Below are positions 6,494-56,000 of a DNA stretch of 64,000 nt, one piece after another. Under the pieces are notes generated by a model. It saw nothing but the letters and a program-made list of their open reading frames with translations, did not search any database and was not told the DNA's origin. The DNA is from a virus. Lineage: Duplodnaviria > Heunggongvirae > Uroviricota > Caudoviricetes. The translations under genes and the position numbers were made by a program. Position 1 is the first letter of the stretch. Each line of letters begins with the position of its first letter. Location: IMG/VR virus record IMGVR_UViG_2778261638_000005, positions 6,684 through 70,683 of that record. One strand, 5' to 3'.

Positions 6494-7098
6494 CAGGACA
6501 ACCTCGCAATGGTAAACTCATCAACCGGTGGCTGTGGTTCCTGTGATTCATTCTGGCTATGCGAGCCAGCACTAAGAATCACGCGATTGTACATATTGAG
6601 GGCAAACGTACCGAGGTCTGCATTCCCAGTCAGCGCCATGTTAATAGCTGCCGCAAGACGCCAGGCCAACGCCTCCATAAAAATGGCATCAAACATGTTC
6701 ACATCTGTAACGCGAGAGACATACTTGAGCCATGCCTGAGGCTGGTCTGTGTAGATCAACTTTCCTGTTCCGTTGGTGTCTGCACCAACTTCGTACTGAA
6801 CGCGCATTGCTGCTGTTGGATTGCGTACACCAGGAAGCATAATTTCAGTAATGCGCAGACAATCGGACGGGTACTGATACGCATATTCCCAGTCAGGCGG
6901 TGGATTGCTCGTATCTGCAAGCGACACGCGTTTGGTAGCAAAGTTCCAGTCAAAATCAGAAAGCACAGCATCACGGCAGGCCTCAAAGTGCAGCGAACAT
7001 TCCCCCGCTTCCTTGCTGGCTTCCGTCAGGCTGTTAATGCTGCGGCTATTGCCAATATTGGACAGCGCACGATTGCAGATCTCTACTACAGAGGCCAT
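6493..7098 (-). CDS. tail tubular protein A-like (adaptor) protein
   Basis: 201 aa; N-terminal LSNIG...SL pattern recalls T7 gp11; follows the capsid genes. Confidence 0.4.
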   Translation of the reverse strand: MASVVEICNRALSNIGNSRSINSLTEASKEAGECSLHFEACRDAVLSDFDWNFATKRVSLADTSNPPPDWEYAYQYPSDCLRITEIMLPGVRNPTAAMRVQYEVGADTNGTGKLIYTDQPQAWLKYVSRVTDVNMFDAIFMEALAWRLAAAINMALTGNADLGTFALNMYNRVILSAGSHSQNESQEPQPPVDEFTIARLS

Positions 7099-7427
7099 TA
7101 CTCACCCCCATTGCCGTACAGGGTTTCAGCCGCTGATTTTTCTACATCCCCGGAAACAGGAGCGATCGCCATATCAGTGATCTGCAGATCGGCGCTGCGA
7201 TTAACACCATCGTCAGTTTCTCTGGCAGACAGGCCTCGAATAACAGCCTTTGCAGTTATCATCACTTCTGTTCCGACGCCCTGAGGTTGCGCCTTCAGCT
7301 TATTCAATGTGTCGTTATTAAGAGTGATGCACAGCCCCCACGGGTATTCATCGCGAGTTCTGGTTTCTCCGCTCTCATCCTGGTAGCTGTCAGTGCCGGT
7401 TTTGAGGTTTACGAGTTCCATATACAC
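7098..7427 (-). CDS. hypothetical protein
   Basis: 109 aa ORF in structural module. Confidence 0.35.
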   Translation of the reverse strand: MYMELVNLKTGTDSYQDESGETRTRDEYPWGLCITLNNDTLNKLKAQPQGVGTEVMITAKAVIRGLSARETDDGVNRSADLQITDMAIAPVSGDVEKSAAETLYGNGGE

Positions 7428-18994: not shown

Positions 18995-19091
18995 TTACTT
19001 GATAAATCCTGCCGCCTTTCCCCGCCTGTATTCCTCCATCAGCCACTGCGCCGGTGTTATTCCCCCCAGGGTGGCGGCGTTAGGCATGCAC
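18995..19091 (-). pseudogene. displaced 3' end of replication gene P (separated from its 5' part by the Mu-like insertion)
   Basis: Joining host sequence at 56001-56004 to 19091 downwards with one GCAC copy gives an in-frame continuation of P for about 30 codons ending at TAA 18995-18997. Confidence 0.35.
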
Positions 19092-19100
19092 TAAAGCGCG

Positions 19101-19175
19101 CAAAATCATTTGATACCGTTTTGAATTTTTTTTGATACCACCCAAAACGGCACAACGAAAAATTATTTGATACTA
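19101..19175. repeat. right-end transposase-binding repeats (three TTTGATAC cores, attR-like)
   Basis: Cores at 19109-19116, 19131-19138, 19166-19173; 22-bp spacing of the first two as for Mu R1-R2. Confidence 0.6.
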
Positions 19176-19910
19176 ATCGGGAGTGCTTTTAGGGTATGGC
19201 TGAACCCTGAATAGCTTAGTATTTAGCCGCTTCCTTGCTCGCTTGTTCAGGAACCTGATGTAGCGATACTGATTAAATTTGTGCACCACGGCACGCTCTT
19301 TATTAGCCCGTAAATACACGCCTCGTTGTCCACCGCGCTTAATTGCGTTCATCGTTATCTCGTGATACCACTCACCATCCAGCTCGTAGAACGTGCTTTC
19401 ATGGCTGCCAATAAAATCAAAATTCGACGCCTGATACACAACGCCTGCGCGTCCGCAGCGTTCGTCAGCAAAGGACTGAACCCACTCCACTGACGGATAC
19501 AGTAATCTGATAACTTTCAGCGCGTAGCTGATGGCCCGTGATTCAGAGTTGCGGGGCATGTCGTCGTGTAGCCACATGCGATTCAACTCCATATAGCCCC
19601 GGTTATCCGTTTCAAGCACGACACGACGACCTGAGTTGGGGTTAAGGGCATATCCCCACTGGAGAACGCCAACCAGATCGCGTCCGCTGAATACTCCCAG
19701 GTGGAGGTAAGAGTTATTCACAAAACGGCGGGAATAGTGCTTTGTCTGAATAATTGTGCGGGCCAGCCAGCAGGATATGGTTTCAACGCGCAGCTCCTTT
19801 GAACCATAGCCAACAATCTGGCCTTCATACTCAATAACGCACGGTTTCGTCAGAATGCGTGATTTTTTCTCTTTTCCCACAATGTTTCTCCGTGGGATGC
19901 TCGCAGGCAT
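19173..19910 (-). CDS. mom: Mom DNA-modification protein
   Basis: Last gene before the right end, overlapping com as in Mu; start codon uncertain (ATG at 19910 or GTG near 19880). Confidence 0.7.
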
Positions 19911-20019
19911 TCAGCATTATGATGTGACGTTTGCAACGCGGACACCTGATTTCAATGTGATCAAAGGAATCCGCCTTAAATAACAGTTTGTTGCAGTTTT
20001 TACAGCGAATTGATTTCAT
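19831..20019 (-). CDS. com: Com zinc-finger translational activator of mom
   Basis: 62 aa with Cys at 6, 9, 26 and 29; directly upstream of and overlapping mom. Confidence 0.8.
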
Positions 20020-20130
20020 CTCACCTCCTTTGCATCAATTCGCCACTATCTTAAAAAACATCATGGGTTGAGTGTGGTTATTGGGGCATAATCGATCTGT
20101 ATTACCGATCGATTTAATTGATTCGATCGT
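20020..20130 (-). promoter_or_regulatory. mom operon regulatory region with three clustered GATC sites
   Basis: GATC at 20094-20097, 20107-20110, 20125-20128 within about 35 bp between gin and com, as in the Dam/OxyR-controlled Mu Pmom region. Confidence 0.55.
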
Positions 20131-20695
20131 CGTTTTCTATATGCGCTCGTTTCGCGGGGTGTTTTTTATACAGAGTTGACAGGGCCACATCGTAGATCAA
20201 TGCAACCTGCTTGCGGGGGATTCCTTGTGCTAATAAACGCCCGGCCTGCTCCCATTCCGCTTTGGTTAGTTTAGGTGGTCGCCCACCAATACGGCCTTTA
20301 TTTCTGGCGGCAGCAAGTCCAGCCATCGTTCGCTCGATGATTAGTTCTCGTTCCATTTCAGCCAGGGCACCCATAACGTGGAAGAAAAAACGCCCCATTG
20401 GAGAAGATGTGTCTATGCTGTCGGTCAGACTGCGAAAATTAATCCCTCGCTCCCGTAGTTCCCCGACGAGAGAAATCAGATGTTTCATGCTTCGCCCGAG
20501 GCGATCCAGTTTCCAGACAACCAGCGTGTCACCTTTTTGAAGGCGCTTTAAAGCGCGTTTTAATCCCGGTCGGTCTGTCTTTGTCCCGCTTAATTTATCT
20601 TCAAATATTTGTTCACATCCTGCACAAACAAGAGCGTTTCGTTGCAGGTCTGTATTCTGGTCATTTGTTGATACCCTTACATAGCCAATCAGCAC
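20114..20695 (-). CDS. gin: Gin-type serine DNA invertase
   Basis: 193 aa; N-terminal YVRVSTNDQ catalytic serine motif of resolvase/invertase family; C-terminal HTH; adjacent to invertible segment. Confidence 0.9.
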   Translation of the reverse strand: MLIGYVRVSTNDQNTDLQRNALVCAGCEQIFEDKLSGTKTDRPGLKRALKRLQKGDTLVVWKLDRLGRSMKHLISLVGELRERGINFRSLTDSIDTSSPMGRFFFHVMGALAEMERELIIERTMAGLAAARNKGRIGGRPPKLTKAEWEQAGRLLAQGIPRKQVALIYDVALSTLYKKHPAKRAHIENDDRIN

Positions 20696-20749
20696 TCTGG
20701 ATCTCCCGTTTAAAAGCGCAAATCATGCCATGCAGGCCGGAAACAACCA

Positions 20750-20777
20750 TTATCTAAAACCTCGGTTTACAGGAAAC
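20750..20777. repeat. gix recombination site (gin-proximal copy)
   Basis: TTATCTAAAACCTCGGTTTACAGGAAAC; inverted copy at 23813-23840 with 2 mismatches; matches the Mu gix sequence as recalled. Confidence 0.8.
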
Positions 20778-20931
20778 GGTAAACAGGGCTGGTAACGCCG
20801 TTCAAAAGACAGGCGATACCTTATCCGGTGGGCTTACTTTTGAAAACGACTCAATCCTTGCCTGGATTCGAAATACTGACTGGGCAAAGATTGGATTTAA
20901 AAATGATGCCGACAGCGACACAGATTCATAC

Positions 20932-21780
20932 ATGTGGTTTGAAACAGGCGACAACGGCAATGAATATTTCAAATGGAGAAGCAAACAAAGCACCACAACA
21001 AAAGACCTGATGAATCTTAAATGGGATGCTTTGTCTGTTCTTGTTAAAGCCCTTTTCAGCAGTGAAGTAAAAATATCGACAGTCAATGCACTGAGGATAT
21101 TTAATTCATCTTTTGGTGCCATTTTTCGCCGTTCTGAAGAATGCCTGCATATCATCCCTACACGAGAGAATGAGGGGGAAAATGGTGATATAGGGCCACT
21201 ACGTCCCTTTACGCTTAATCTCAGAACTGGCCGCATAACTATGGGGCATGGTCTGGATGTTACAGGAGATATAACAACTAACGCCTGGGTGTATGCAAAC
21301 AGGTTTGCTATTAATAGTGGCTCAACCTCATGGATTGATATGCGAAACCAGAATGTCATTTTTGGTAGAAACGCAGTATCAACAAGTTCTGCGCAGGCTT
21401 TGTTAAGACAAGACCATGCAGAACGCAAATTTTTTGTCGGTGGACTTGGTAACTACCAGTTTGGTTTTTACATGATTAATAACTCAAGGACAGCCAATGG
21501 CACCGATGGTCAGGCGTACATGGATAATAACGGTAACTGGCTTTGTGGCTCGCAAGTTATTCCTGGCAACTATGGCAATTTTGATTCCAGATATGTGAGA
21601 GATGTTCGCCTGGGTACGCGAGTTGTTCAATTGATGGCGCGTGGTGGTCGTTATGAAAAAGCCGGACACGCAATTACCGGATTAAGAATCATTGGTGAAG
21701 TAGATGGCGATGATGAAGCCATCTTCAGGCCAATACAAAAATACATCAATGGCACATGGTATAACGTCGCACAGGTGTAA
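20932..21780 (+). CDS. alternative tail-fibre variable domain Sv' (silent orientation)
   Basis: Open frame continues upstream to the gix site at about 20779; C-terminus INGTWYNVAQV parallels the S C-terminus INGTWYNAGSI; would fuse to the constant S part after inversion. Confidence 0.7.
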   Translation: MWFETGDNGNEYFKWRSKQSTTTKDLMNLKWDALSVLVKALFSSEVKISTVNALRIFNSSFGAIFRRSEECLHIIPTRENEGENGDIGPLRPFTLNLRTGRITMGHGLDVTGDITTNAWVYANRFAINSGSTSWIDMRNQNVIFGRNAVSTSSAQALLRQDHAERKFFVGGLGNYQFGFYMINNSRTANGTDGQAYMDNNGNWLCGSQVIPGNYGNFDSRYVRDVRLGTRVVQLMARGGRYEKAGHAITGLRIIGEVDGDDEAIFRPIQKYINGTWYNVAQV

Positions 21781-22311
21781 ATGATGCAGCATTTAAAAAA
21801 TATTAAGTCTGGAAATCCTAAAACGAAAGAACAATATCAGCTAACAAAGAATTTTGATGTTATCTGGTTATGGTCCGAAGACGATAAAAACTGGTATGAG
21901 GAAGTGAAAAACTTTCAGCCAGACACAATAAAGATTGTTTACGATGCAAATAATATTATTGTCGCCATCACTAAAGATGCCTCCACGCTTAACCCTGAAG
22001 GTTTTAGCGTCGTTGAGGTTCCTGATATTACAGCCAACCGCCGCGCTGATGATTCAGGAAAGTGGATGTTTAAGGATGGAGCTGTAGTTAAACGGATTTA
22101 TACGGCAGACGAACAGCAACAACAGGCCGAATCACAAAAGGCCGCATTGCTTTCCGAAGCTGAATCAGTCATCCAGCCGCTGGAACGCGCTGTCAGGCTG
22201 AATATGGCAACAGACGAGGAACGCACACGACTGGAAGCATGGGAACGCTACAGTGTTCTGGTCAGCCGTGTGGATACGGCAAATCCTGAATGGCCACAAA
22301 AGCCTGAATAA
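21781..22311 (+). CDS. alternative tail-fibre assembly protein U'
   Basis: 176 aa; N-terminus near-identical in pattern to U ([18 protein letters not shown]); convergent with U. Confidence 0.75.
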
Positions 22312-22316
22312 AAATT

Positions 22317-22338
22317 AAGGCCCGCTATCGGGCCTTGT
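22317..22338. terminator. bidirectional stem-loop between convergent U and U'
   Basis: GGCCCG-ctat-CGGGCC hairpin between the two stop codons at 22309-22311 and 22340-22342. Confidence 0.5.
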
Positions 22339-22339
22339 C

Positions 22340-22873
22340 TCATTCAGGTTGTTCGGGAAATGTTACTGGCAGGCTGGAGGTGTCTGTAGATTCGACTTTC
22401 TGCGCATAGAGCATCCACTCAGTTAATTTTTGTTTATTCTCGTCGGAAATGATGCCCAGCCGTAGCTGTGAGTCCCATAGCTGGGTTTTATCCCTGACAA
22501 GTTGCAACAGGCTTTGTTTTTCATTCTCTGCCTGCTGCCTTTGTTCCTCCTCGGTATAAGTTCGCTTTATCACTACGCCATCTTTGAACATCCATTTACC
22601 CGAAATATCAGCCCGGCGATTTGCTGTAATATCAGGAACCTCAACGACGCTTGCGCCTTCTGGATTAATTGCTGAAACATCCTTTTCAATACAAATAATA
22701 ACGTCGTTGTGGTCATAGACCATTTTCAACGTATCAGGCTGAAAGTTCTTTTGTTCCTCATACCAGTTTTTCCCATCCTCTGTATAAAGCCATTTGATGT
22801 TAAATTGTTTCGTTAGCTGGTATTGCTCTTTTGTTTTAGGGTTGCCAGCAGTAATGTTTTTTAAGTGCATCAT
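22340..22873 (-). CDS. tail-fibre assembly protein U
   Basis: 177 aa, paralogue of U', immediately after S. Confidence 0.8.
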   Translation of the reverse strand: MMHLKNITAGNPKTKEQYQLTKQFNIKWLYTEDGKNWYEEQKNFQPDTLKMVYDHNDVIICIEKDVSAINPEGASVVEVPDITANRRADISGKWMFKDGVVIKRTYTEEEQRQQAENEKQSLLQLVRDKTQLWDSQLRLGIISDENKQKLTEWMLYAQKVESTDTSSLPVTFPEQPE

Positions 22874-22875
22874 CG

Positions 22876-24336
22876 TTAAATACTCCCCGCGTTATACCAC
22901 GTCCCATTAATGCAATACTGAATTGGCCTTGCCTGAGTTGTATCAATTAATTCATCACGGTTTCCGTTAACTGAACCTGTAACGACATAACCTGACCTGT
23001 CAGACCAGCCGGGACCATTCCATGTCTGAACAGATGACAGACCGCCCAGGCGAATACCTGTAATAAACCTTGAGTTACATTCTGCCTGCGTATATGCACC
23101 AACATCCCCCGCAGAGGGTTTGCGGGTTGTGGTGTAAAACTCTGACCAGTTAGCTTCAAAGCCATAACCATCACGCGCTGAACGATAAAAGATACCGCCG
23201 TTCTTATAATTCACGCGGAACTGTACAGCAGGGCAACTCCCCGCATTCATATTGAAGTGGAGGATTAATGTCGATGCGCCACTGATATCTGCATCATAAA
23301 CGCCGCTATTCCAGTTCCAGCCAACAGCTTTATCATTTGCAACCCTGCTTCCTGTTTGCCCTAAAGCAAATGCAGGCTGCTGGTTTTTCGTGTTGTAGTC
23401 TCTTCGCCAGCCAGGAGCATAAGCATCACCATGATTAATATAAGTGAATTGAGCGTTAGTAATTCCGCCACCGCTGGACGTGCTCGGGGTGGTTACACGG
23501 ATGGTCATGGCTCCTTTATTACCCATAACCTCAATAACGCAACCTGCAAGATGAATAGTTCCACAGCCAGTATCGGTAATAATTTTATTATTGCCGTATG
23601 ACCATGAACATTTGCACATCCAGTATGGGTGATTGAATGCCCCTTGAGAATCCAGCCATTCAATCAATTGTGCCGTCGTCCAGTTTCCTGCACCTGTGCT
23701 AATAGCACTGTGAAAAGCGCGACATGCACCAATATTTTTTGTGAAAGTATCTTTTCCTGGAATATCTGCGCCGTTCTGGTTTTTCTGTAATGCGCCAGAA
23801 GCCTGATTTACCGTTTCCTGTAAACCGACGTTTTGGATAAACAGCGGCTTATTGGGAATATCTGCTCCGTTCCGGTCTTTTGCCAGACGGGCATTGGCAT
23901 TATCCATCGCAATTTTCACCGCTTTTGCGGTGGCTGCCAGCGTTTCACTGGGGCTGTCAGTGGCACTGGTTAGCTGAACGAGTCCTTTTTTGTTCAGGCT
24001 GGCATCATAGATATCCAGATTTTCACGTGCTGTACGCTGTGCTGATGCCCCGGCAGTTTTAATTTCACTGAGGTTATTTTTTATCAGCAGCGCGTTATTG
24101 CTCATAATGGCTTTAATGGACAGTGCAAGCTGGTTTAATTTTGTTTTATCCGGTTGAATACCGGCTTCTTCCAGCGTGTTTAATAACTCCGCCTGCACAA
24201 TATTAAACCAGTCCATGCCGGGCCATGTGATAACATTATTCCCGTCACCTTCTGAAAACCAGCGAACGATAGCACTACGCTGGGCGGATACGGGCGGCAT
24301 GACGGTTACGCCGCTGTCGTTATCAATATAAAACAT
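22876..24336 (-). CDS. tail-fibre protein S (constant N-terminal part plus variable Sv part inside the invertible segment)
   Basis: 486 aa; gix site lies inside the gene at 23813-23840; internal NGADIP repeat. Confidence 0.8.
   Translation of the reverse strand: MFYIDNDSGVTVMPPVSAQRSAIVRWFSEGDGNNVITWPGMDWFNIVQAELLNTLEEAGIQPDKTKLNQLALSIKAIMSNNALLIKNNLSEIKTAGASAQRTARENLDIYDASLNKKGLVQLTSATDSPSETLAATAKAVKIAMDNANARLAKDRNGADIPNKPLFIQNVGLQETVNQASGALQKNQNGADIPGKDTFTKNIGACRAFHSAISTGAGNWTTAQLIEWLDSQGAFNHPYWMCKCSWSYGNNKIITDTGCGTIHLAGCVIEVMGNKGAMTIRVTTPSTSSGGGITNAQFTYINHGDAYAPGWRRDYNTKNQQPAFALGQTGSRVANDKAVGWNWNSGVYDADISGASTLILHFNMNAGSCPAVQFRVNYKNGGIFYRSARDGYGFEANWSEFYTTTRKPSAGDVGAYTQAECNSRFITGIRLGGLSSVQTWNGPGWSDRSGYVVTGSVNGNRDELIDTTQARPIQYCINGTWYNAGSI
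23813..23840. repeat. gix recombination site (copy inside S gene)
   Basis: GTTTCCTGTAAACCGACGTTTTGGATAA, reverse complement of the 20750-20777 site with 2 mismatches. Confidence 0.8.
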
Positions 24337-24878
24337 TAGTTATCTCCGTCATGGTAAACAAATTTATAAATCTGATGTGCGGGTTTATATTTCTCCAGTA
24401 AACATTCCAGCGCACCCGATTCATAAACACGTAACGGCGTCAGAACATTATCCAGCACCGTTGCGTTGCGATAATTTTTAATACCGTAAATATTGACCTG
24501 CGTAACCCACTGGCCTTCTGTGGAATCCGTCAGCCTGACGGTAAAACCGTACTGTGCAGCCAGCCATTCATAAAAGCGCCGACTCAGATTGCCGGTCATA
24601 CGCATTTTATTCGCGGCAGCCCGCTGGCGTTCGGACAAGGTGCCGTTTTCGCTGGTACAGTCCGGCAACCCCAGAAATGATTCCCACTCCCCCAGATACC
24701 AGCGGGATGTGGACGGGAAACGCTCCCGCAGCATTTGCCGCGCATCATCCGCCGCAGTGGCAATCACGTCGCTGATGGCCTGCGCCAGCGCAGATAATTT
24801 GCTGTCGGGGCTTTTATTCCAGGCAAGCCCTGACGGCAGTAATTGCAGAAAGGCCGTCTGATAGGGTGTTACAGCCAT
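24336..24878 (-). CDS. baseplate/tail protein (Mu gp48 position)
   Basis: 180 aa; position and size in conserved Mu tail order. Confidence 0.6.
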   Translation of the reverse strand: MAVTPYQTAFLQLLPSGLAWNKSPDSKLSALAQAISDVIATAADDARQMLRERFPSTSRWYLGEWESFLGLPDCTSENGTLSERQRAAANKMRMTGNLSRRFYEWLAAQYGFTVRLTDSTEGQWVTQVNIYGIKNYRNATVLDNVLTPLRVYESGALECLLEKYKPAHQIYKFVYHDGDN

Positions 24879-25951
24879 TCAATTGTCCCCGGTGTTAACA
24901 GTTCCGTATTCTCCGAACGCTGGATCTCTGTCGGGAAACGCACTTCAAAATCATCCAGACCGGTAACACCTGCCACCGCACGGATAATACGGGAGGGGGC
25001 AAGTGCGCCGCCCGGCGTCACCTCATTAAAAAACATGGTATTAATGGCGTGGGTAATAGCCTGTTTCAGTTCGGCTGTCTTCGGTGATATATAAATCCGT
25101 GGATTTACCGGCTTTGCCTTTGGCGCAAATACAGTGACATTTACACCGTCAGGCTGTCCGACAATCAGACCGGTGATCGGGTCAGTATGACCGGCGATAT
25201 AATCTGCCACGCGTTCCACGTCTGCCGGTTGTGGAAAAATATTGCTCCGGTTATCCATAACAAACGTCACCCCGACTGTGCCACCGCCTTTCCATGTCGG
25301 AAAACACCAGGCACGGGTAACGCCGCTGACTTCACGTGCCCAGCGGACGTAATCAAACTGATTACCGCCGAACGGAGGATACTGGACACGATATTCCAGC
25401 CGTGACAGCAGCTCCGCTGCACTCTCAATATCAGCCCCACCGGAAAACCCTTTTACAGTGATGGCATCGGAAACAACACAGGCAACCGGGGTGATCAACG
25501 TTAAAAGGGTATTCTCACCGGTATTTCCTGCTTCACCGGCAGCCAGTGCGGTAACGGTAATTTCCGTCGTTCCTGCACGGTCAATCACAATGGCATCAGC
25601 CAGGCTGTAAACCACACCATCAGCACGCTGCCAGCGTGTACCGGCAGGAATGGTGGTCGCTGCCGATGTGGTGACAGTCAGCGGGCCGCTGGCGGCTGTC
25701 GCCTGTTTGCGGCGCACGCCCCAGAACCGGCAGTGCTCCAGCAACTCATCTTCATCTGCTGTCGACGGGATAATCTGCCGTCCAACCCATGAAATATGCT
25801 CGTGACAACCGGCAGCAAGGCCCGCCTGAGCATAAGCAATGGCACTCAGCGTTTTTTCACGGGCCTGAGGCCAGCTACCCGGCAGGCGCTGTTCAATATT
25901 CTGTTCTGTACGGGCAATCAGCGATGATAATGTCGGTGGTGAATAAGCCAT
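24869..25951 (-). CDS. baseplate J-like protein (Mu gp47 position)
   Basis: 360 aa; baseplate wedge position. Confidence 0.65.
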   Translation of the reverse strand: MAYSPPTLSSLIARTEQNIEQRLPGSWPQAREKTLSAIAYAQAGLAAGCHEHISWVGRQIIPSTADEDELLEHCRFWGVRRKQATAASGPLTVTTSAATTIPAGTRWQRADGVVYSLADAIVIDRAGTTEITVTALAAGEAGNTGENTLLTLITPVACVVSDAITVKGFSGGADIESAAELLSRLEYRVQYPPFGGNQFDYVRWAREVSGVTRAWCFPTWKGGGTVGVTFVMDNRSNIFPQPADVERVADYIAGHTDPITGLIVGQPDGVNVTVFAPKAKPVNPRIYISPKTAELKQAITHAINTMFFNEVTPGGALAPSRIIRAVAGVTGLDDFEVRFPTEIQRSENTELLTPGTIEWL

Positions 25952-45408: not shown

Positions 45409-45831
45409 TTATTTTGGGCTTTCAGGTGAGAACAGATCAGGCTGATGACGTCGTGTATGCAGCTTTCTCTGGCGGGCAATAATCTGGTAGATCTGCGGCT
45501 GGGACAGGCGGTACTGGCGACGCAGTTCTTCCATGTTACGACCATTAAACTGGCAGTAAAGCAAATCGTCACGTAACGCGGTCAGGATCGTATCGCCGCA
45601 GGGGATGTAAAACTGCCGTCCGCCCAGAAAACAGGACAGGGCAACGGCCTGTTTACGGGCAAGCTCACGGGGATTGCTGACGTTCTGGCGTTTCAGTTCG
45701 TTTTCCAGAACATCAATCAGATCAACCACCGAACGGGGCCAGCGTGATTCCAGTTCCGGGGCCGGGATGTTATCAATATGTCCGATTAACTGGCGAATTG
45801 CCGGATCGTGTTCAAATAAATCATGCTGCAT
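45409..45831 (-). CDS. late transcription activator C (Mor/C family)
   Basis: 140 aa; paralogue of mor product at 46810-47199 with shared C-terminal HTH pattern (FNGRN...ELRRQY). Confidence 0.8.
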   Translation of the reverse strand: MQHDLFEHDPAIRQLIGHIDNIPAPELESRWPRSVVDLIDVLENELKRQNVSNPRELARKQAVALSCFLGGRQFYIPCGDTILTALRDDLLYCQFNGRNMEELRRQYRLSQPQIYQIIARQRKLHTRRHQPDLFSPESPK

Positions 45832-47820: not shown

Positions 47821-48060
47821 ATGTCTGTAGAAAACAATGCGTCAATCACTTTTAACCTGGTTTCAGGTCTGATGGTGAAACTTGTTCGTAACAAGATTCT
47901 GACAAAGTGGGAAGCTCAATCCATACTGGCCTCTGCAATTCTTGAAAACGTTCAGAACCAGGAGGGGGTTACTGATTCGGATCTTGATGCACTTCGTCTG
48001 AAACTTGCTATGTCGGATTTCAGCGTTGAAAAAGAGCCTCCACAAGACGATCAGGCGTAA
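47821..48060 (+). CDS. hypothetical protein, opposite-strand gene inside Mu early region
   Basis: 79 aa from ATG 47821 with GGAG RBS 5 nt upstream; fills the only gap in the minus-strand early gene array. Confidence 0.4.
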   Translation: MSVENNASITFNLVSGLMVKLVRNKILTKWEAQSILASAILENVQNQEGVTDSDLDALRLKLAMSDFSVEKEPPQDDQA

Positions 48061-48316
48061 TCACGTCTGATGGTTTAAGTCCCAGCCTGCGGCGAATAAA
48101 TGCGTCGCGGGCTTTTTTGTTATCCAGTGAAACTTCATCTGCAATAATATTAATTTCATGCTGGATAATATTCACAGTAACACGAGCAGAAAGCCCTTCA
48201 CGGATAGCAATATCAATAATATCGCGCATACGCTCAAGCATTTTAGCTTTCACCAGTTCTTCATCCAGGTCTTTAGGCGTAAATTTAGTTTCATTATTCA
48301 TATTATTCACCTTCAC
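48020..48316 (-). CDS. hypothetical early protein
   Basis: 98 aa ORF. Confidence 0.45.
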   Translation of the reverse strand: MKVNNMNNETKFTPKDLDEELVKAKMLERMRDIIDIAIREGLSARVTVNIIQHEINIIADEVSLDNKKARDAFIRRRLGLKPSDVITPDRLVEALFQR

Positions 48317-48485
48317 AATTCATGCACGCCGTGTCATCGCCCATATCGCAGTGGTTGCATTTCAGCCCGCCACAATGAGGGCACTCTTTCAGATATTCAG
48401 GGGCTTCATTACCGCAGGTCGGACATGCCTGTTTCACCGTGGTAAATTTCCCCAGCCACGAATACGATGTTTCATTGTTTTCCAT
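48303..48485 (-). CDS. small zinc-ribbon protein
   Basis: 60 aa with CPTCG...CPHCG...CNHC...CMNC. Confidence 0.45.
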   Translation of the reverse strand: MENNETSYSWLGKFTTVKQACPTCGNEAPEYLKECPHCGGLKCNHCDMGDDTACMNCEGE

Positions 48486-49023
48486 TGTTTACCCCCGCCT
48501 GTTCCAGTGCCATAACTGGTGCGTCAGAACAGTCAAGAATGAGATAGCGCAGTACATGGTCGGTGATATTCCATGCGTTTGAGCTGCAAATAAAACGCCC
48601 TGGCCGGATATCAATATAAGCCATCACAAAACGGGGCATTCCCTGTTCGCACATCCTGTTATCCACTTCTGCAACGATGTGAACGGATTCACAGGTCAGC
48701 ACGCCCGTTGCAAACTCTTTTGCCAGCGCGGGGATGGTATTACCTTCCACCCAGGGTAATGAGCGACGCCAGTTGCACCACACCGCATCATCAACAGCAG
48801 GCTGCTCAGTTGCGTTTCGTCTTACAGGCGGCGTCGGACGTGGGCGCGGAACGTCATAAAATCCGTTGCATTCGGTGAGAACACCGGCATCAACCGCATC
48901 ACGCAGGAAATACACCATTGACGAGGGCAGCATATTCATTTTTTCAGCCAGAACCCCGCAGGTCAGACGCCCGTAAGCCCGTAATAATGTGCTGACACCA
49001 TTCAGAACTTTTGCATCAATCAC
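48472..49023 (-). CDS. hypothetical early protein
   Basis: 183 aa ORF. Confidence 0.45.
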   Translation of the reverse strand: MIDAKVLNGVSTLLRAYGRLTCGVLAEKMNMLPSSMVYFLRDAVDAGVLTECNGFYDVPRPRPTPPVRRNATEQPAVDDAVWCNWRRSLPWVEGNTIPALAKEFATGVLTCESVHIVAEVDNRMCEQGMPRFVMAYIDIRPGRFICSSNAWNITDHVLRYLILDCSDAPVMALEQAGVNNGKQ

Positions 49024-49026
49024 CGG

Positions 49027-49581
49027 TTATTCCTCCGTCAGCGCCACAAATTCAGAATGTTTAATGCGCTGGCATTCGGCGGGAACCGGTCCCTTCACTT
49101 CGCCAGCCAGAAGGTACACCGCAAACAAAATGCTGAATCCGTCACGGCTGTGGTGCATTTTCCACACGGACCTGATGTCAAACAGGTCAACGTCGGTAGC
49201 CACGTTAAGTTCATTGCACAGCCAGCGCGGAAAATCCGGGTTTTTTTCGAGCTGATTTTCACAGTCCCGGATGAGCTTCCCGTACTCACGGCCTGCCGGT
49301 ATTGTCATATCCGGCATTGCGCCCCATAACTGAATATCACCAATGAAAAGTGTCCTTGATTTAATCTCCCATCCTTCCGGTGGTAAGTAGCTAAACCAGA
49401 CATGCGTAACCCTCTCAGGCCCTTTGTCACCAGACAAAGACACACCGATTGCTTTCACTGATTGCTGTAATGACTCAATAATCTCACCACGCTTAACAGA
49501 AACCTCTTTCAGCCAGCGAATCGTATAACCGTTAGCGGCTGTGTCACTCAGTTTAAAATAAGCACATGCTTTCATTTTCAT
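49027..49581 (-). CDS. hypothetical early protein
   Basis: 184 aa ORF. Confidence 0.45.
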   Translation of the reverse strand: MKMKACAYFKLSDTAANGYTIRWLKEVSVKRGEIIESLQQSVKAIGVSLSGDKGPERVTHVWFSYLPPEGWEIKSRTLFIGDIQLWGAMPDMTIPAGREYGKLIRDCENQLEKNPDFPRWLCNELNVATDVDLFDIRSVWKMHHSRDGFSILFAVYLLAGEVKGPVPAECQRIKHSEFVALTEE

Positions 49582-49672
49582 TCTCTCCGGTTCTGATTAA
49601 GGCGCGAGTAGTCCTCTGACGCATCGCGCCATAATTAAACGAATGTGAATTAATTAAATATTAATGGTGGTA

Positions 49673-50197
49673 TTAAATACCGGCTTCCTGTTCAAACGGA
49701 ATAATGGAAAAATCTTCAATTCCCGATTTAACCGTAATTCCGGCAACACCTGCGACGGCTTTTGGTTCCAGTAAAATCGCCTCCTTGTTGATTTCCTGCT
49801 TCGTGCGAATAAAGCGTTGCAGGCCAAGACGCTCCAGCGTTTCCATCACTGCATCCATACCACGAATACTTACTGATGGTGGACGGACCCGCCACGATAC
49901 ATCACCGGTGACAAGATTCGCCGTCTTCACTTTGCCGCCGTTCGTCAGTTCGTCGCGGTTCGCTTCACACCATCCCTGAACGCCTTTTGAAAGGGTTTCA
50001 ATATCGGTTTTAATCGGTGCAATTCGGGCCGCAAATTTCTCCGTAATTTCCGCGATGGCATCATTCATTTCCGTTTCCAGACGTGATGCTTCGCGCTGTA
50101 AATCCCCGATGCGTTTAATATCGGTAATCACCGCATCGCGGTTTTGTGGCACATAAGCCGCTGCGGCACTCTTGATACGTTTTGCTGGTTTAGCCAT
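49673..50197 (-). CDS. gam: Gam, Ku-like DNA-end-binding host-nuclease inhibitor
   Basis: 174 aa; N-terminus MAKPAKRIKSAAAAYVPQNRDAV matches Mu Gam as recalled. Confidence 0.8.
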   Translation of the reverse strand: MAKPAKRIKSAAAAYVPQNRDAVITDIKRIGDLQREASRLETEMNDAIAEITEKFAARIAPIKTDIETLSKGVQGWCEANRDELTNGGKVKTANLVTGDVSWRVRPPSVSIRGMDAVMETLERLGLQRFIRTKQEINKEAILLEPKAVAGVAGITVKSGIEDFSIIPFEQEAGI

Positions 50198-50216
50198 AAA
50201 TTAAAGCTCCTGTTAA

Positions 50217-50516
50217 TTAATATCCGCTGTATACAATGCTGGATACAGCTCGATTGCTTAATTCCATCTTTCGGGCAATGACATGAATATCCAGTCCTTC
50301 TTTATAAAGTTCACGACATAAATATTTGTCGTGTTCACTGATTCGGTATACACACAATGATATTCCGTGCCTTCTGGCATGTGCCCGGAGGGCGGTTGTG
50401 GCGACTTTCAGTTTTTCCGCCATTTCTTCAACGGTCATTTTCCCGACGTTGGCTTCGATAAATTCCCGGTCTTCGCGTGACCAGCGCTTACGATTATACT
50501 TCATGTCAGCCACCAT
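50217..50516 (-). CDS. putative DNA-binding early protein
   Basis: 99 aa, HTH-like MTVEEMAEKLKVATTALRAHARRHG. Confidence 0.4.
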   Translation of the reverse strand: MVADMKYNRKRWSREDREFIEANVGKMTVEEMAEKLKVATTALRAHARRHGISLCVYRISEHDKYLCRELYKEGLDIHVIARKMELSNRAVSSIVYSGY

Positions 50517-50936
50517 TCAGTACAGCAGAGGCTCGCGCAGTGATGCCGGAATATGCCGCAGCGATAACTGAACCGCTTTCAGGGCAAGCGAGGAATAACA
50601 GCAGCGCGCCCAGCCTTTTGCCATTAACCGGTAATCGCGCCAGATACGCTGCCACATTTCACGGGCTTCAGGGTCTGATGCGCAGATGTATTCCCGGTCC
50701 ATGACGTACTCCCATAAATCCACGTTGAACGCACCGCCAAATGCAATGGCGCGGGATATGCTTTCGCCGCAATAACGCGCACAGATGCTGTAATGGTCGA
50801 AAGCAATCAGGTAAGTCTTTTCACCACAATCATCAACTTTTCGGGCGCAAATAAACTCGCGTAATTCACCACCGTTGTTATTGCGTTCCTGAATTCGGAT
50901 TAATGCCTGAATTTCATTTCGGATTTTGACGTTCAT
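50517..50936 (-). CDS. hypothetical early protein
   Basis: 139 aa, Cys-containing. Confidence 0.4.
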   Translation of the reverse strand: MNVKIRNEIQALIRIQERNNNGGELREFICARKVDDCGEKTYLIAFDHYSICARYCGESISRAIAFGGAFNVDLWEYVMDREYICASDPEAREMWQRIWRDYRLMAKGWARCCYSSLALKAVQLSLRHIPASLREPLLY

Positions 50937-50956
50937 TGTCAGCGTTCCTTTGCGAA

Positions 50957-51226
50957 TTAATGTTTAACCACATTCACCGGACGTGGTACTAAATCACATT
51001 CAGCTTCCATACCCACTTTCTTCATAGTGGTCAGCATCTCATCTTTGGCCTTTTTAATAATTTCAGGAGCCATAGTCAGGACTATATTTGCCAGTAAATC
51101 ATGAGGCCCGGTATTTTCCGTTGGCGAGATATCTGCAAGACATGCTTTTGCATCCAGAACTTCTCTGCGCCCATTGCAACTGTCACTACTTTCCAGCCAT
51201 GTAAACTCAAAGATAACCTTTGCCAT
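50957..51226 (-). CDS. hypothetical early protein
   Basis: 89 aa ORF. Confidence 0.4.
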   Translation of the reverse strand: MAKVIFEFTWLESSDSCNGRREVLDAKACLADISPTENTGPHDLLANIVLTMAPEIIKKAKDEMLTTMKKVGMEAECDLVPRPVNVVKH

Positions 51227-51246
51227 TTTTCTTCTCCTTATTGATT

Positions 51247-51492
51247 CTAAATAACTGCGCTGGCTTTTACCTTCGCGCCTTTTACCTGCTTAAAGAAAAC
51301 TGCGCTGCACCACGGACAACATGTCAGGGAATCCCGAATTTCCTTTTCGGGTGAGCATTGCGTCATAATCTGTTCACCGCATCCTGGGCATTTATATGTC
51401 GTCAGCGGCACCCCGTGGCACTGACAGTGTTTAACCCATTCAATATATTTTTCAGCTTTAATACACATCGTTATCTCCAGATAATCTGGCAA
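51247..51492 (-). CDS. small zinc-ribbon protein
   Basis: 81 aa, CQCH...CPGCG...CCPWC. Confidence 0.4.
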
Positions 51493-51698
51493 CCATTAAG
51501 ACGGGCCGTCCATACAGAACGGGCCACCCCGGACTTATGCTCCATAATTCTGACCGCGTTTTTTACCAGTTCCACCGGTGGGTAAGTGATTTCAAGAATC
51601 GGACGCGCCACGCCGAGATATGATTCATTTACATGACTCCCGCGCGCCTGTAACCAGTTCTGCGCATCCGTTGCCATTTTTATATTTCGTGACATCAT
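51471..51698 (-). CDS. small early protein at the Mu kil position
   Basis: 75 aa, first gene downstream of B. Confidence 0.4.
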
Positions 51699-51709
51699 TA
51701 TTTATCCCC

Positions 51710-52642
51710 TTACCACCAGTTCAGTAATTTCGGGTTGCTGTAAACCTCTTTAAAAGCTGCTTTAATGTAGCCTTTGGATAGAGGAACGCCTTTCCCGCTG
51801 GCAGCCAGCCACGCCTGATTCAGCGTATGAGTTAATACACGTAATGCACCTGGTTTTTCCGCGATGCTCTGCATGAGTGATAATTCATCTTCGCCCTCAA
51901 TGCCCCAGGCTTTCGCAATTGCCACCACGTCAGCCTTTTTGGCTTTACGTAGTTGCTTTGTTCTGGCGAAACGACTGAACAAACGTGCAAGGTCATCTGT
52001 TCCCCGGTGTGTGGCTTTGGCTAACTGGTGTGGGTTGCCAATCAATACCATCCCGACGCCGGTTGCATCCTGAATGGCGCGTAACTGCTCCAGCCCGTCC
52101 ATGCTCAGGTGGTCAGCTTCATCCACAATAACCAGACCGCGTGTGCCATTCAGTTTTTTGCGAATGGCGCGGGTCAATGCGCCTTTATTCCTTTGCGGAT
52201 TATCAATTCCCAGCGCGTCTGCCAGCTCCAGCAGACACTCAGTCACTGTTGAGTGTGCAGGGGAAAGGGTCACCATCCAGGTATTAGATACACGGTTACT
52301 GTATTCACGGGCCGCAACGGTTTTACCAACACCCGGCACACCAACCAGAACGCTGATACAGCCCATAACACGCACGGTCTGAAACAGCTCGCGCAAATCA
52401 CGGAGGGTTTGTGTTTCCACAAGTTGTGGTGCGCCAGGTAACTCCAGACTTTTTTGCCAGCTCTGATGCCACATCAGTAATTTGTCATGCATCCCTTCGG
52501 TATCACCTTTGTAACGGCCTTTGCGAAGTTCAGAAAGAGTGGCCTCCGACACCCCCGCTTCTTTAGCAATAGCGCTTTGTGTTTTTACGCCGTCAGTAAT
52601 AAGTGTGTTAATCGTGTTGAAAACATCATTAATATCGGTCAT
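51710..52642 (-). CDS. B: transposition ATPase B (target DNA activator)
   Basis: 310 aa; Walker A GVPGVGKT, Walker B LVIVDEADHL; N-terminal HTH; downstream of transposase. Confidence 0.9.
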   Translation of the reverse strand: MTDINDVFNTINTLITDGVKTQSAIAKEAGVSEATLSELRKGRYKGDTEGMHDKLLMWHQSWQKSLELPGAPQLVETQTLRDLRELFQTVRVMGCISVLVGVPGVGKTVAAREYSNRVSNTWMVTLSPAHSTVTECLLELADALGIDNPQRNKGALTRAIRKKLNGTRGLVIVDEADHLSMDGLEQLRAIQDATGVGMVLIGNPHQLAKATHRGTDDLARLFSRFARTKQLRKAKKADVVAIAKAWGIEGEDELSLMQSIAEKPGALRVLTHTLNQAWLAASGKGVPLSKGYIKAAFKEVYSNPKLLNWW

Positions 52643-52715
52643 ATTATTCTCCGTTTATTCAAATCAGCTTTGTTTCCTTCGTTTAACAGTCCGTTCCCGC
52701 GGACTGTTTTTTTAT

Positions 52716-54803
52716 TCAGGCCAGCGGATCATCCTGTTCCTGTATGGCTACAAGCTTCTGCAAACCCAGCCTGAAATCGCGTTCATAATCTTCGTCGTAA
52801 TCCTCCTCATAATCCTGTTGCTGGATGGTTACCGTATTGCCAACCGGGCGATAAACATTATCCAGCCAGGGTTCAGCCTGTTTGTGCTCCAGTATCTGAA
52901 TGCCTTCATCCTCAGCATCACGAATTTTTTCCTCAGCACGTTTGCGCATTCCTTTAATACGCTGCTGTTGTTTGTGATATTCAGCACTGACAGCAAAGGC
53001 TGCGCGTTTATTGCCGTTCCATATCGCCTCACAGATAAAGCTGCCGTCCTTGCGACGTACCGTAATTCGCTCGGCGTCATGAATGTCATAACTGATAAGT
53101 ACTTTGCGACCGTGTTCGTCACGCAACTCCGGCGCGTAGTAAATATTGTTCAGCCACTGAATTTCGCACCGTCTTACCGGGCGTTCCACCATCGGGCGGA
53201 ACATGTCGCGCAGCTCAAGATCACTCAGCCACTCAATTTCGGTGCCTTCTTCTGCCAGGCGTTTTTTTCTGAACTCTGCCGGGCTGTAATGCCGCCCGTT
53301 CGGTTTCATTGGCAGCTCAGAATGCGGGCGGTTGTTGTACCATTCCACGCCTTCACGAATAGCCTCAATAAGCTCCGCCCACGATGGTAGCTCGCGCATT
53401 GCAGCTTTCTGGCGGTCGTTCAGAGGCTTGTCCTGTTGCATGGCGTTAAACGCTGAACGCAGATCACGGTTAAGTACACGCAACGATTCCCGGTCAGCAC
53501 CCTTGCCAAAATAGGTGCGATACCTCCTGGCTATACGCATCGGCAGTGTCCGGTTCAGGCGTTCAATAATGCCGCGCCCCTGTGGATTACCGGCAATACC
53601 GGTAGGGTGTTTAATCCCCAGGCGGGGCAGAATACCCACGATCTCTTTGTCCAGTATGTCAGCCGTTTCACCAGAACCATTATCCGAGTAATACAGAAAC
53701 GGTTTTCCGTGGTTGCGAATGCCGTGCTGTATCGCACCGGCAACGGCGAACACGTTCTCGGCAAGGTCAAGACTCCAGCCAACAACAAACCGGGTTCCAC
53801 CGTCGATCACAAATGTAACTTCCGGTGAGAATGGACGCCCGTGGATCGGATGTGCACATTTCAGCTTCATACCGTGACCGTCACCAATCCAGACATAATT
53901 CACCGGCATAGCTGTCCAGTCGCGGCGGGTGAATCCTTCAAGCTGACGGTATTCACTGCCGGTAACGCGCCCTTTTTGTTTCACCACTTCCGGCAGTTTT
54001 TTCATGGCATACCGGACAACATCATAGGAAGGCATCACCTCCAGCATGTATGGTTCGTCCGCATGGCGACGCTGCCAATCAGCGACAAAATCCTCATAGG
54101 CTTCAGACATAGGCCTGCCGTTAGCCTGACGATACTGCGCCAGAAATTCAGGCAGCCAGCTAATTTCTTCCGGTTTTATTTCGTCGCGCTTTCCTGGTGC
54201 CAGTAACAGCAGTCGTTCTGCGGCATTCTGTGCTTTGTTAAACGCAGCTATCCAACGTTTGAGCGTAATTGCGCTCAGAGTTCGCTCTTTTCCTTTACGG
54301 GCATTAGCAGTAATGACCAAAGATTCCAGGCGTTCTTCCAGGTTACCCTGCGCTAACCGCGACACAATAAAACGTATAGCGCTGGCACAACTGAATCCCG
54401 GCTCCTGGCTAATTCGTAGAACTTCACAGACAAGAGCAATGCGCGCTTCTGCAACTTTACGTTGATTTTCCGTAAGCGCATTCAGACGCTCTTCTACCAA
54501 TTGTGGCGAACCGCGATATGCCTCAACAGGCTGTACAACATTTTGTTTGCGTTCACGCTTTACAGGAGGCTGGGTAGTTATCTCCCGCGGGGCGCTTGCC
54601 ATCAGTTGAGCTACATGTCGCTCACGTAACGCCCGTTGTGTAACCGGAGGGAGGCAGTCGATGCTGTATTCAATGGTTTTTGAACCCGCACGTTTGCGCC
54701 TGAAATGCTCAGATGAGGCCAGTTTCCTTATGGAATACCGCACCCCTTGCGCAGTTCCCGGCATACCTGGTAACCCTACAAGCTCATTAACTGATACAAA
54801 CAT
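52716..54803 (-). CDS. A: DDE transposase A
   Basis: 695 aa; Mu-A-like catalytic core; N-terminal end-binding domain diverged from Mu A as recalled. Confidence 0.9.
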   Translation of the reverse strand: MFVSVNELVGLPGMPGTAQGVRYSIRKLASSEHFRRKRAGSKTIEYSIDCLPPVTQRALRERHVAQLMASAPREITTQPPVKRERKQNVVQPVEAYRGSPQLVEERLNALTENQRKVAEARIALVCEVLRISQEPGFSCASAIRFIVSRLAQGNLEERLESLVITANARKGKERTLSAITLKRWIAAFNKAQNAAERLLLLAPGKRDEIKPEEISWLPEFLAQYRQANGRPMSEAYEDFVADWQRRHADEPYMLEVMPSYDVVRYAMKKLPEVVKQKGRVTGSEYRQLEGFTRRDWTAMPVNYVWIGDGHGMKLKCAHPIHGRPFSPEVTFVIDGGTRFVVGWSLDLAENVFAVAGAIQHGIRNHGKPFLYYSDNGSGETADILDKEIVGILPRLGIKHPTGIAGNPQGRGIIERLNRTLPMRIARRYRTYFGKGADRESLRVLNRDLRSAFNAMQQDKPLNDRQKAAMRELPSWAELIEAIREGVEWYNNRPHSELPMKPNGRHYSPAEFRKKRLAEEGTEIEWLSDLELRDMFRPMVERPVRRCEIQWLNNIYYAPELRDEHGRKVLISYDIHDAERITVRRKDGSFICEAIWNGNKRAAFAVSAEYHKQQQRIKGMRKRAEEKIRDAEDEGIQILEHKQAEPWLDNVYRPVGNTVTIQQQDYEEDYDEDYERDFRLGLQKLVAIQEQDDPLA

Positions 54804-54805
54804 TT

Positions 54806-55042
54806 TTATGCCACCTTACGAGCGTAACGGCTGGGCCAGATCTCCTCCGGCGCAACACCAATAGCATCAGCAATAATGCGCTCATATTTTGGGCATTTGC
54901 GGTACAGGGCATTCTTTAAAGAATCCTGGTTTAAACCGGCTTCAATGGACAGAGAGCGTAAAGTAAAACCTTTTACATGCACCGCCGCGACAACATGCGC
55001 GGGGTGCCAGTCCTGTTTAACAACTTCATTTATAGACATCAT
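54806..55042 (-). CDS. ner: Ner-like DNA-binding regulator
   Basis: Probable start MMSINEV at 55042 with AAGGA RBS; C-terminal EEIWPSRY matches Ner family. Confidence 0.8.
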   Translation of the reverse strand: MMSINEVVKQDWHPAHVVAAVHVKGFTLRSLSIEAGLNQDSLKNALYRKCPKYERIIADAIGVAPEEIWPSRYARKVA

Positions 55043-55182
55043 TCGTTTATCCTTAAAAGTTATCTGCGCGGATAACACCGCCGGATAATCTCTACAGATA
55101 AATATTTGATCACTACAAAAGAAAAGTAAAGGTGTTTTATCTCTTTCTTTGGTTGTTTTTATCTACAAAAGGATATTTCTTT
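55043..55182. promoter_or_regulatory. divergent early promoter/operator region between ner and c
   Basis: 140-bp AT-rich intergenic region between divergent repressor and ner genes. Confidence 0.5.
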
Positions 55183-55767
55183 ATGAATCATATGGTTAAC
55201 AGAAAAGAAAGAAGCACTGAAAAAGAAAGTGATTTTTCTTTTCCTGTGTTTCAAAAAGAAAGCATTAAAGAGCGCCTAGCCATGCTAATGCGCGGGCGCT
55301 CCAAGACTGCCGTGGCGAAGGCGTGGGGGCTACCGTTCTCAACACTTAACAACTACTTTGAGAAAGATGCGACACCATCTCTACAAGTAGCTAGTCAGAT
55401 TGCTTTTGCAGAAGGGGTGAGCATTGATTGGCTTGTTTTTGGCAAGGAGGATATAGAACCAATATCACCTAAAATAGATGAAAACGTCCAATTGCCCCTA
55501 GATATAACGCTACAGCGCCTTCTTGCTATACTAAGTGCTTTAGAAGCATCAGAGGCAGAGCGATTATCAAAAATCCTCGCGCTAAATGGAGCTAAGTACT
55601 TGTCACGGTTACTTGAACCAGAGAATCAAGAACTAATCCAACTTGAAGGACGAAAACGTGCAGCAGCTCTACTTTTAGATCATTTATCGGATGAAAGAGT
55701 TAGAGAGATTTTGGCAGAAATTGAAAGCGATAAACTCTCAAGTAGTTTAGAATCGAAGGCGGGCTAA
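55183..55767 (+). CDS. Mu-type c repressor
   Basis: 194 aa from ATG 55183 (AAGGA RBS); divergent from ner, reads toward left end. Confidence 0.7.
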   Translation: MNHMVNRKERSTEKESDFSFPVFQKESIKERLAMLMRGRSKTAVAKAWGLPFSTLNNYFEKDATPSLQVASQIAFAEGVSIDWLVFGKEDIEPISPKIDENVQLPLDITLQRLLAILSALEASEAERLSKILALNGAKYLSRLLEPENQELIQLEGRKRAAALLLDHLSDERVREILAEIESDKLSSSLESKAG

Positions 55768-55794: not shown

Positions 55795-55829
55795 ACCTGT
55801 TTAAAACGTTAAAATCGCAGAAATCAGTA

Positions 55830-56000
55830 GTATCAAATATTTTTTCGTTTTTAGCTTTCTTTGCGACAGTAGTATCAAATCACATGTTGTGCGCATAACA
55901 CTGTTTTACGTCATAACTGTTTGTTTTATCCCATCAAATCCCGTTTGATCCACTTTCCTCCCGGATTTTTCAGCAGTATCAAATGATTTACCTCTCTATA
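55830..56000. repeat. left-end transposase-binding repeats (three GTATCAAA cores, attL-like)
   Basis: Cores at 55830-55837, 55872-55879, 55976-55983; spacing 42 and 104 bp mirrors Mu L3-L2-L1; adjacent sequence GAAAAATCCGGGAGG...GATGGGAT resembles the Mu left end. Confidence 0.6.

Follow-up and report, generated by a model that had tools for sequence, protein, structure and literature searches.

The regulatory region described here is almost certainly the canonical com-mom operon of phage Mu with its promoter Pmom, carried on a Mu-like prophage, and it is a feature already known in every respect tested. The analysed stretch, hereafter the window, comprises 64,000 nt of the IMG/VR record IMGVR_UViG_2778261638_000005 (positions 6,684 to 70,683), and the minus strand of window positions 19780-20200 aligns with the Mu sequence AF083977 over ~420 bp at 100% identity, with zero differences. 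The identical stretch spans the three GATCs, the C-binding dyad, the -35 element, the T6 spacer, the -10 element, the com Shine-Dalgarno sequence, and all of com. A sequence-only reading had proposed a com-mom operon of the Mu type with the Dam/OxyR-controlled architecture of Mu, and had made the position of the GATCs relative to the Mu Pmom region the decisive point; this position is unchanged, and the GATC layout at Pmom is identical to that of Mu. The span it delimited, 19831-20130, includes com and the promoter but leaves most of mom outside. The region is an exact copy of a well-studied phage circuit that confirms annotation rather than revealing new biology, and the operon identifies the surrounding 37 kb as a Mu-like prophage with a DNA hypermodification enzyme that counters restriction. 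What is mildly new is comparative only, namely the conserved GATC spacing and the com-less mom genes with GATC triplets, which provide a modest lead on the evolution of the mom control layers.

Nucleotide identity with Mu (AF083977 / NC_000929) reaches 73 bp upstream of GATC site 1 and 100 nt into mom, and the gene order gin-com-mom at the right end is the same in Mu and the prophage. The annotation of AF083977 lists, in order, gin, a late promoter, the com ribosome-binding site, com ('translational activator'), the mom ribosome-binding site, and mom. Muvirus phages (Mu, D108, SfMu, and several Yersinia pestis phages) and E. coli prophages are 97-99% identical to a 1.8-kb query taken around the site, and 47 of 5426 complete E. 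coli genomes carry the Pmom-com segment. The operon and its three GATCs are common to D108, SfMu, the Yersinia phages vB_YpM_Tongde, vB_YpM_5, and vB_YpM_6, and the E. coli prophages. D108 and Tongde each show five differences from the window and Mu in the 19780-20200 alignment, none of them within a GATC; a few fall in the C dyad spacer and in the DNA separating the GATCs, and the Pmom region of the window is nearer to Mu than to either phage. In D108, the dyad spacer (window 20078-20091) reads GTCTCA in place of GCCCCA, and one base is changed between GATC sites 1 and 2, while Tongde carries two base changes in the promoter spacer; the dyad half-sites and every GATC are retained in both.

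Table 1. Features of the com-mom region and its regulators in the window; relative positions are counted from the inferred +1.
Feature	Window position	Strand	Relative position	Remarks
gin	20114-20695	-		193 aa, serine invertase of the G segment; Pfam Resolvase + HTH_7
GATC site 1 (promoter-distal Dam site)	20125-20128		-87/-84	within the last gin codons
GATC site 2	20107-20110		-69/-66	starts 3 nt past the gin stop codon
GATC site 3	20094-20097		-56/-53	directly abuts the C-binding dyad
Best match to the 37-bp OxyR tetramer consensus	20095-20131			13/20 specified positions
Dyad TTATgccccAATAA, putative binding site of activator C	20078-20091	-	-50 to -37	sequence identical to Mu
Poor -35, ACCACA	20073-20078	-	-37 to -32	
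T6 run	20053-20058	-		3' end of the 19-bp spacer; last T is the first -10 base
-10, TAAGAT	20048-20053	-	-12 to -7	
mom operon transcription start, inferred	20041	-	+1	two independent published anchors agree
com Shine-Dalgarno, AGGAGG	20024-20029	-		
com ATG	20019	-	+23	
com	19831-20019	-		62 aa, CCCC zinc-finger translational activator
Com-binding RNA hairpin, AUGC-CUGCGA-GCAU	19897-19910	-		predicted; CC(N)3GAG motif, six-nucleotide loop
Translation-inhibition hairpin	19875-19897	-		predicted; minimum-energy and centroid fold
mom GTG	19880	-	+162	
mom	19173-19880 (GTG start)	-		235 aa, GNAT-fold adenine-modifying enzyme
C	45409-45831	-		late-gene activator needed in trans for Pmom; Mor family

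Com is identical to Mu Com at 62/62 residues and Mom to Mu Mom at 230/231, with four extra C-terminal residues. The four-Cys zinc finger attributed to Com is present (Cys6, Cys9, Cys26, and Cys29, forming an N-terminal CxxC...CxxC), and the protein scores 36.8 bits against the Pfam family Zn_ribbon_Com (PF10122; cut-off 22.9). Mom matches PF25680 with 253 bits over profile positions 1-202 of 202, and the activator C (45412-45831, minus strand), which is identical to Mu C at 139/140 residues, matches Pfam Mor with 116 bits; the Mom, Zn_ribbon_Com, and Mor scores all exceed the curated cut-offs. The longest mom ORF covers 19173-19910, and the GTG at 19880 corresponds to the annotated start in Mu; with this GTG start, the two genes share 50 nt (19831-19880), read in different frames, in keeping with the earlier description of com as overlapping the mom start. 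Homology to Mu ends at ~19189, 16 nt ahead of the mom stop codon, so the C-terminus of Mom reads ...YPKSTPD and is four residues longer than that of Mu Mom. Mom has been described as a GNAT-fold enzyme that makes N6-carbamoylmethyl-dA with the help of Gly-tRNA(Gly) (PMC13219725; earlier model in PMC7261163). Database labels for these proteins vary: Com is named 'Com family DNA-binding transcriptional regulator' in RefSeq and is described in the literature as an RNA-binding translational activator (PMC6483171), and Mom appears in RefSeq as 'hypothetical protein', 'protein mom', 'adenine methylcarbamoylation protein', or 'tRNA(Gly)-dependent adenine aminoacyltransferase'.

Three GATC sites within 35 bp upstream of com had been pointed out, and they lie exactly there, together taking up 35 bp upstream of the C site (Table 1). 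Their described overlap with the 3' end of gin holds for site 1, which is contained in the Asp-Arg codons of the Gin C-terminus (...ENDDRIN*), but not for sites 2 and 3, which lie downstream of the gin stop codon; since only site 1 is inside gin, the cluster straddles the 3' end of the gene rather than lying within it. Site 2 belongs to the second PvuI site (CGATCG). By count alone, the cluster is within chance expectation: of simulations that spread the 183 GATCs uniformly over 64 kb, 45% produced one or more triplets within 35 bp (P about 0.45). The layout GATC-N13-15-GATC-N9-GATC is found once in the window, against 0.05 expected. Support for the cluster comes from its identity to Mu and its conservation in relatives, not from its count.

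GATCs are also grouped elsewhere in the window. Another triplet (7164-7190, three sites within 27 bp) lies inside a 109-aa minus-strand ORF (7098-7427) in the structural region of the flanking prophage; it has no apparent regulatory context and is probably due to chance. A looser third cluster at 57101-57142 (sites 57101, 57115, and 57139) sits in an iterated array (57085-57160) of three TCCCGTTTTTGG units, the last two of which belong to a perfect tandem repeat of 24 bp, CCCGTTTTTGGGATCATTCAACAT. The array is located inside an O-like replication gene of the lambdoid prophage (56690-57505; HTH_36 and DnaT domains) and looks like origin iterons. Over the whole Mu-like prophage, GATC is depleted, with 79 sites observed vs about 130 expected from the dinucleotide content, including GATC-free stretches of 4.2 kb in the G segment and tail-fibre genes (20700-24923; about 12 sites expected) and of 4.7 kb in the early region (48049-52727; about 15 expected); the lambdoid flanks show a normal GATC density. 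Avoidance of GATC is a general trend in enterobacterial phages.

The dyad TTATgccccAATAA, which we take to be the binding site of C, overlaps the -35 element of Pmom. This role has been assigned to the dyad in studies of Mu (PMC4461284, PMC3378877), in which C binds over the promoter, unwinds the DNA, and recruits RNA polymerase (PMC4461284). The start site was placed at 20041 by two anchors: a 78-mer Ptin7 fragment that spans -58 to +20 (PMC4461284 oligo table; PMC3378877), and a published primer annealing downstream of +56, which maps to +57..+76. Pmom has been described as having poor -35 and -10 elements with suboptimal spacing (PMC3378877) and a stretch of six T residues in its spacer (PMC4461284 Fig 1 legend; PMC3378877). 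The two PvuI sites, 18 bp apart, and a BstUI site at -115 both match the restriction map in PMC3378877. A generic scan for sigma-70 promoters and terminators did not find a promoter at Pmom, a result that fits an activator-dependent promoter and is not positive evidence for one.

Transcription from Pmom has been shown to be governed by Dam and OxyR (PMC3378877), and OxyR fails to bind once the three GATCs, which lie in a 43-bp region, are methylated (PMC7549136, citing Sun & Hattman 1996; PMC2909390). The host protein Fis adds repression through positions -123, -98, -49, -38, and +3 (PMC3378877), which correspond to window positions 20164, 20139, 20090, 20079, and 20039. The best match to the OxyR tetramer consensus includes the whole of GATC sites 1 and 2 and all of site 3 except its base at 20094; the match is not distinctive, as 12 places in the window, this one included, score 13 or more. 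OxyR would be expected to bind the cluster on the strength of the literature on identical Mu DNA.

Downstream of the promoter, a further layer of control is predicted at the RNA level. Folding of the transcript over 19925-19850 gave two adjacent hairpins with a modest z-score of -1.7, and the published 25-nt Com target, 5'-GAAUGCCUGCGAGCAUCCCACGGAG-3' (PMC6483171), is present exactly at 19888-19912. In the predicted translation-inhibition hairpin, the GUG start codon of mom (19880-19878) lies in the stem and the Shine-Dalgarno sequence GGAG (19891-19888) in the 5' arm. The two predicted hairpins match the description in PMC6483171, according to which the GUG start codon is held in a hairpin stem and Com binds a hairpin and frees the mom start. 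The Com hairpin is also the consensus structure that RNAalifold returned across nine diverged loci, with compensatory changes at all 4 pairs; in these nine relatives, only the Com hairpin was recovered, the translation-inhibition hairpin being misaligned by indels, and a CCCAC...GUGGG hairpin is visible by eye in five of the nine sequences. A search of Rfam gave no family at threshold for either hairpin, and the hits to IS102 and CcsR1, far below the gathering scores, were attributed to chance.

The observed elements (the Mu-identical sequence, the element positions, the predicted hairpins, an intact C gene, and GATCs conserved in relatives) suggest how the operon would operate, provided that the binding and effects of OxyR, Dam, C, Fis, and Com reported for the identical Mu sequence also hold here. 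Layered control would keep a toxic DNA-modifying enzyme silent until late lytic growth. In the methylation gate, OxyR would bind the unmethylated Dam sites (-87 to -53) and repress the promoter, and Dam methylation would prevent OxyR from binding. Pmom itself, with its poor -35, its T6-bearing spacer of 19 bp, and its -10, would be intrinsically dead and would fire only after C had bound the dyad (-50 to -37) and altered the shape of the DNA; repression by the host protein Fis would come on top. The transcript would encode Com first, and Com, by binding its small hairpin (19910-19897), would open the adjacent hairpin (19897-19875) that sequesters the mom Shine-Dalgarno sequence and GUG, allowing Mom to be translated. 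Mom would then, by means of Gly-tRNA(Gly), attach a carbamoylmethyl group to adenine N6, protecting the phage DNA from restriction.

A comparative survey places this layout in a wider context. Mom homologues gave 851 hits, and an alignment-based scan with one genome per species yielded 80 loci. Five Enterobacterales loci with com (L005, L007, L019, L039, and L022) carry the layout GATC-N14/15-GATC-N9-GATC upstream of mom; in loci with an uninterrupted com, the distance from the layout to the downstream com ATG is about 76-114 nt, and the com of L022 contains a stop codon. Among other loci with com, one from Edwardsiella (L008) shows a 27/9 GATC spacing and one from Scandinavium (L004) has lost the third site. 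GATC triplets also occur at com-less mom genes: two Symbiopectobacterium loci carry a triplet with 27/9 spacing directly upstream of mom (L009, about 1918-1965; L010, about 1924-1971), and in a metagenome-assembled Enterobacteriaceae genome (L006, 1884-1918), the 14/9 module is inverted directly upstream of mom and adjoins a gin-like gene. The Mom proteins of these three loci are 74-81% identical to that of the prophage. The com-less Serratia and Yersinia loci (L014-L018 and L028) have no GATC cluster, and the Oceanospirillales-type loci (L011-L013) have none or two GATC sites.

An alignment of eight promoter sequences with 64% mean column identity quantifies this conservation: 10 of the 12 GATC columns are invariant, compared with 15 of the 122 other columns (Fisher p = 5e-7), with sites 1 and 2 invariant throughout and site 3 kept in 7/8. 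This difference argues that the GATC cluster is under constraint in lineages whose hosts have Dam, which matches the published mechanism. About 40 alpha- and deltaproteobacterial loci (within L020-L083) have an ORF with a Com-like CxxC...CxxC pattern preceding mom, and these com-mom loci, together with a few from Pseudomonas, have no GATC cluster in the 160 bp upstream. Clusters of GANTC, the CcrM site, were considered as an analogue upstream of the alphaproteobacterial com-mom pairs, and none were found. The alpha- and deltaproteobacterial hosts of com-mom are not known to have Dam. As these loci have neither a GATC nor a GANTC cluster, the methylation gate appears to be specific to the enterobacterial lineage. 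The retention of the spacing at ~64% identity, the 27/9 variant in Edwardsiella, and the triplets at com-less mom genes have led us to a tentative and rather doubtful further proposal, that GATC-N14-GATC-N9-GATC could be an ancestral, semi-autonomous methylation gate of Enterobacterales mom genes that has outlived the Com layer. If this were true, Dam/OxyR control and Com control would be separable, lineage-specific layers and not one fixed circuit.

The operon is part of a reverse-oriented Mu-like prophage that extends from 19092 to 55999/56000 (about 36.9 kb), and its ORFs follow the Mu gene order without interruption. It is inserted inside a lambdoid 'replication protein P' gene adjoining a DUF1064 gene; once the flanks are joined, their sequence runs without a break in 533 complete E. 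coli genomes. The flanks share 99.4% identity with E. coli lambdoid prophage DNA, which suggests an E. coli-like host, whose dam and oxyR genes lie outside the window. Comparison with the empty site defined a target duplication (19087-19091 and 56000-56004, TGCAC / AGCAC) of either 4 bp (GCAC) or an imperfect 5 bp, and the same comparison led to the rejection of Mu-style TG...CA ends at 19087 and 56003. In contrast to the TG...CA ends of Mu, those of the prophage begin with TA(A/T)AG..AAATCATTTGATAC, and each end contains three ATTTGATAC-type repeats (19092-19173; 55824-56000). At the right end, the innermost repeat (19165-19173) shares a single base with the mom stop codon (19173-19175). The early region (repressor, 695-aa transposase, and B; about 51.7-56.0 kb, 51710-55767) matches only vB_YpM_5 and vB_YpM_6, whereas the remainder of the prophage is about 97% Mu-like. 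Both this early region and the right end beyond mom differ from those of Mu; the right end is shared with the Yersinia phages and E. coli A21, and vB_YpM_5 and vB_YpM_6 share the early region as well. The prophage is a mosaic, in which a different transposition module is joined to Mu-like late genes and mom.

Other explanations of the cluster and of the operon were weighed against a functional Mu circuit. That the triplet is a chance grouping with no regulatory role, for example, a by-product of the two CGATCG palindromes at the gin end, might seem plausible from the count, as triplets within 35 bp are expected in 45% of windows at equal GATC density and another lies inside the ORF at 7164-7190. 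The exact spacing, however, is expected only 0.05 times in the window; it is kept upstream of mom where the regulatory DNA is only about 64% identical, it is absent from the alpha- and deltaproteobacterial com-mom loci, and published work on the identical Mu sequence shows dependence on Dam and OxyR (PMC3378877, PMC7549136). Chance is, on this evidence, barely credible. The mosaic structure raises a different question, whether the prophage is defective and the Mu circuit an inert relic whose operon never meets C or lytic replication. The non-Mu ends and early genes, and a target duplication that is imperfect or merely 4 bp, point in this direction, but the element has its full length of about 36.9 kb and no broken ORF along the Mu gene order, its intact C, Com, Mom, and Gin match those of Mu at 99-100% identity, and isolated plaque-forming Yersinia phages share its early module and right end, all of which makes a relic improbable.

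A third possibility accepts a role for the GATCs and differs in how they act: the sites could act mainly through the binding of SeqA or Fis, or through heritable, phase-variable methylation of the agn43 type, instead of an OxyR gate. The Fis footprints at -107 to -84 and -60 to -22 do overlap sites 1 and 3 (PMC3378877), phase variation of mom is stated as unknown in PMC2909390, and the OxyR consensus match reaches just 13/20. Against this, Dam dependence has been attributed to OxyR in three sources (PMC3378877, PMC2909390, PMC7549136), and Fis repression has been reported as an added layer rather than as a methylation-dependent one; we regard a mechanism of this kind as very improbable. A Mu circuit gated by Dam and OxyR, with C and Com as further layers, remains the preferred reading.

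Parallels to this gate are found in the agn43 (Ag43) and gtr switches, in which, as reported for Mu mom, GATCs are embedded in an OxyR site and methylation and OxyR binding are mutually exclusive (PMC2909390). The agn43 and gtr systems control surface genes of the host or of a prophage by heritable phase variation, with the ON and OFF states of the agn43 type maintained as OxyR sequesters the GATCs from Dam, and the Pmom region is not filed under this agn43-type family. Unlike agn43 and gtr, mom has a promoter that additionally needs a phage activator and a product that needs a translational activator.
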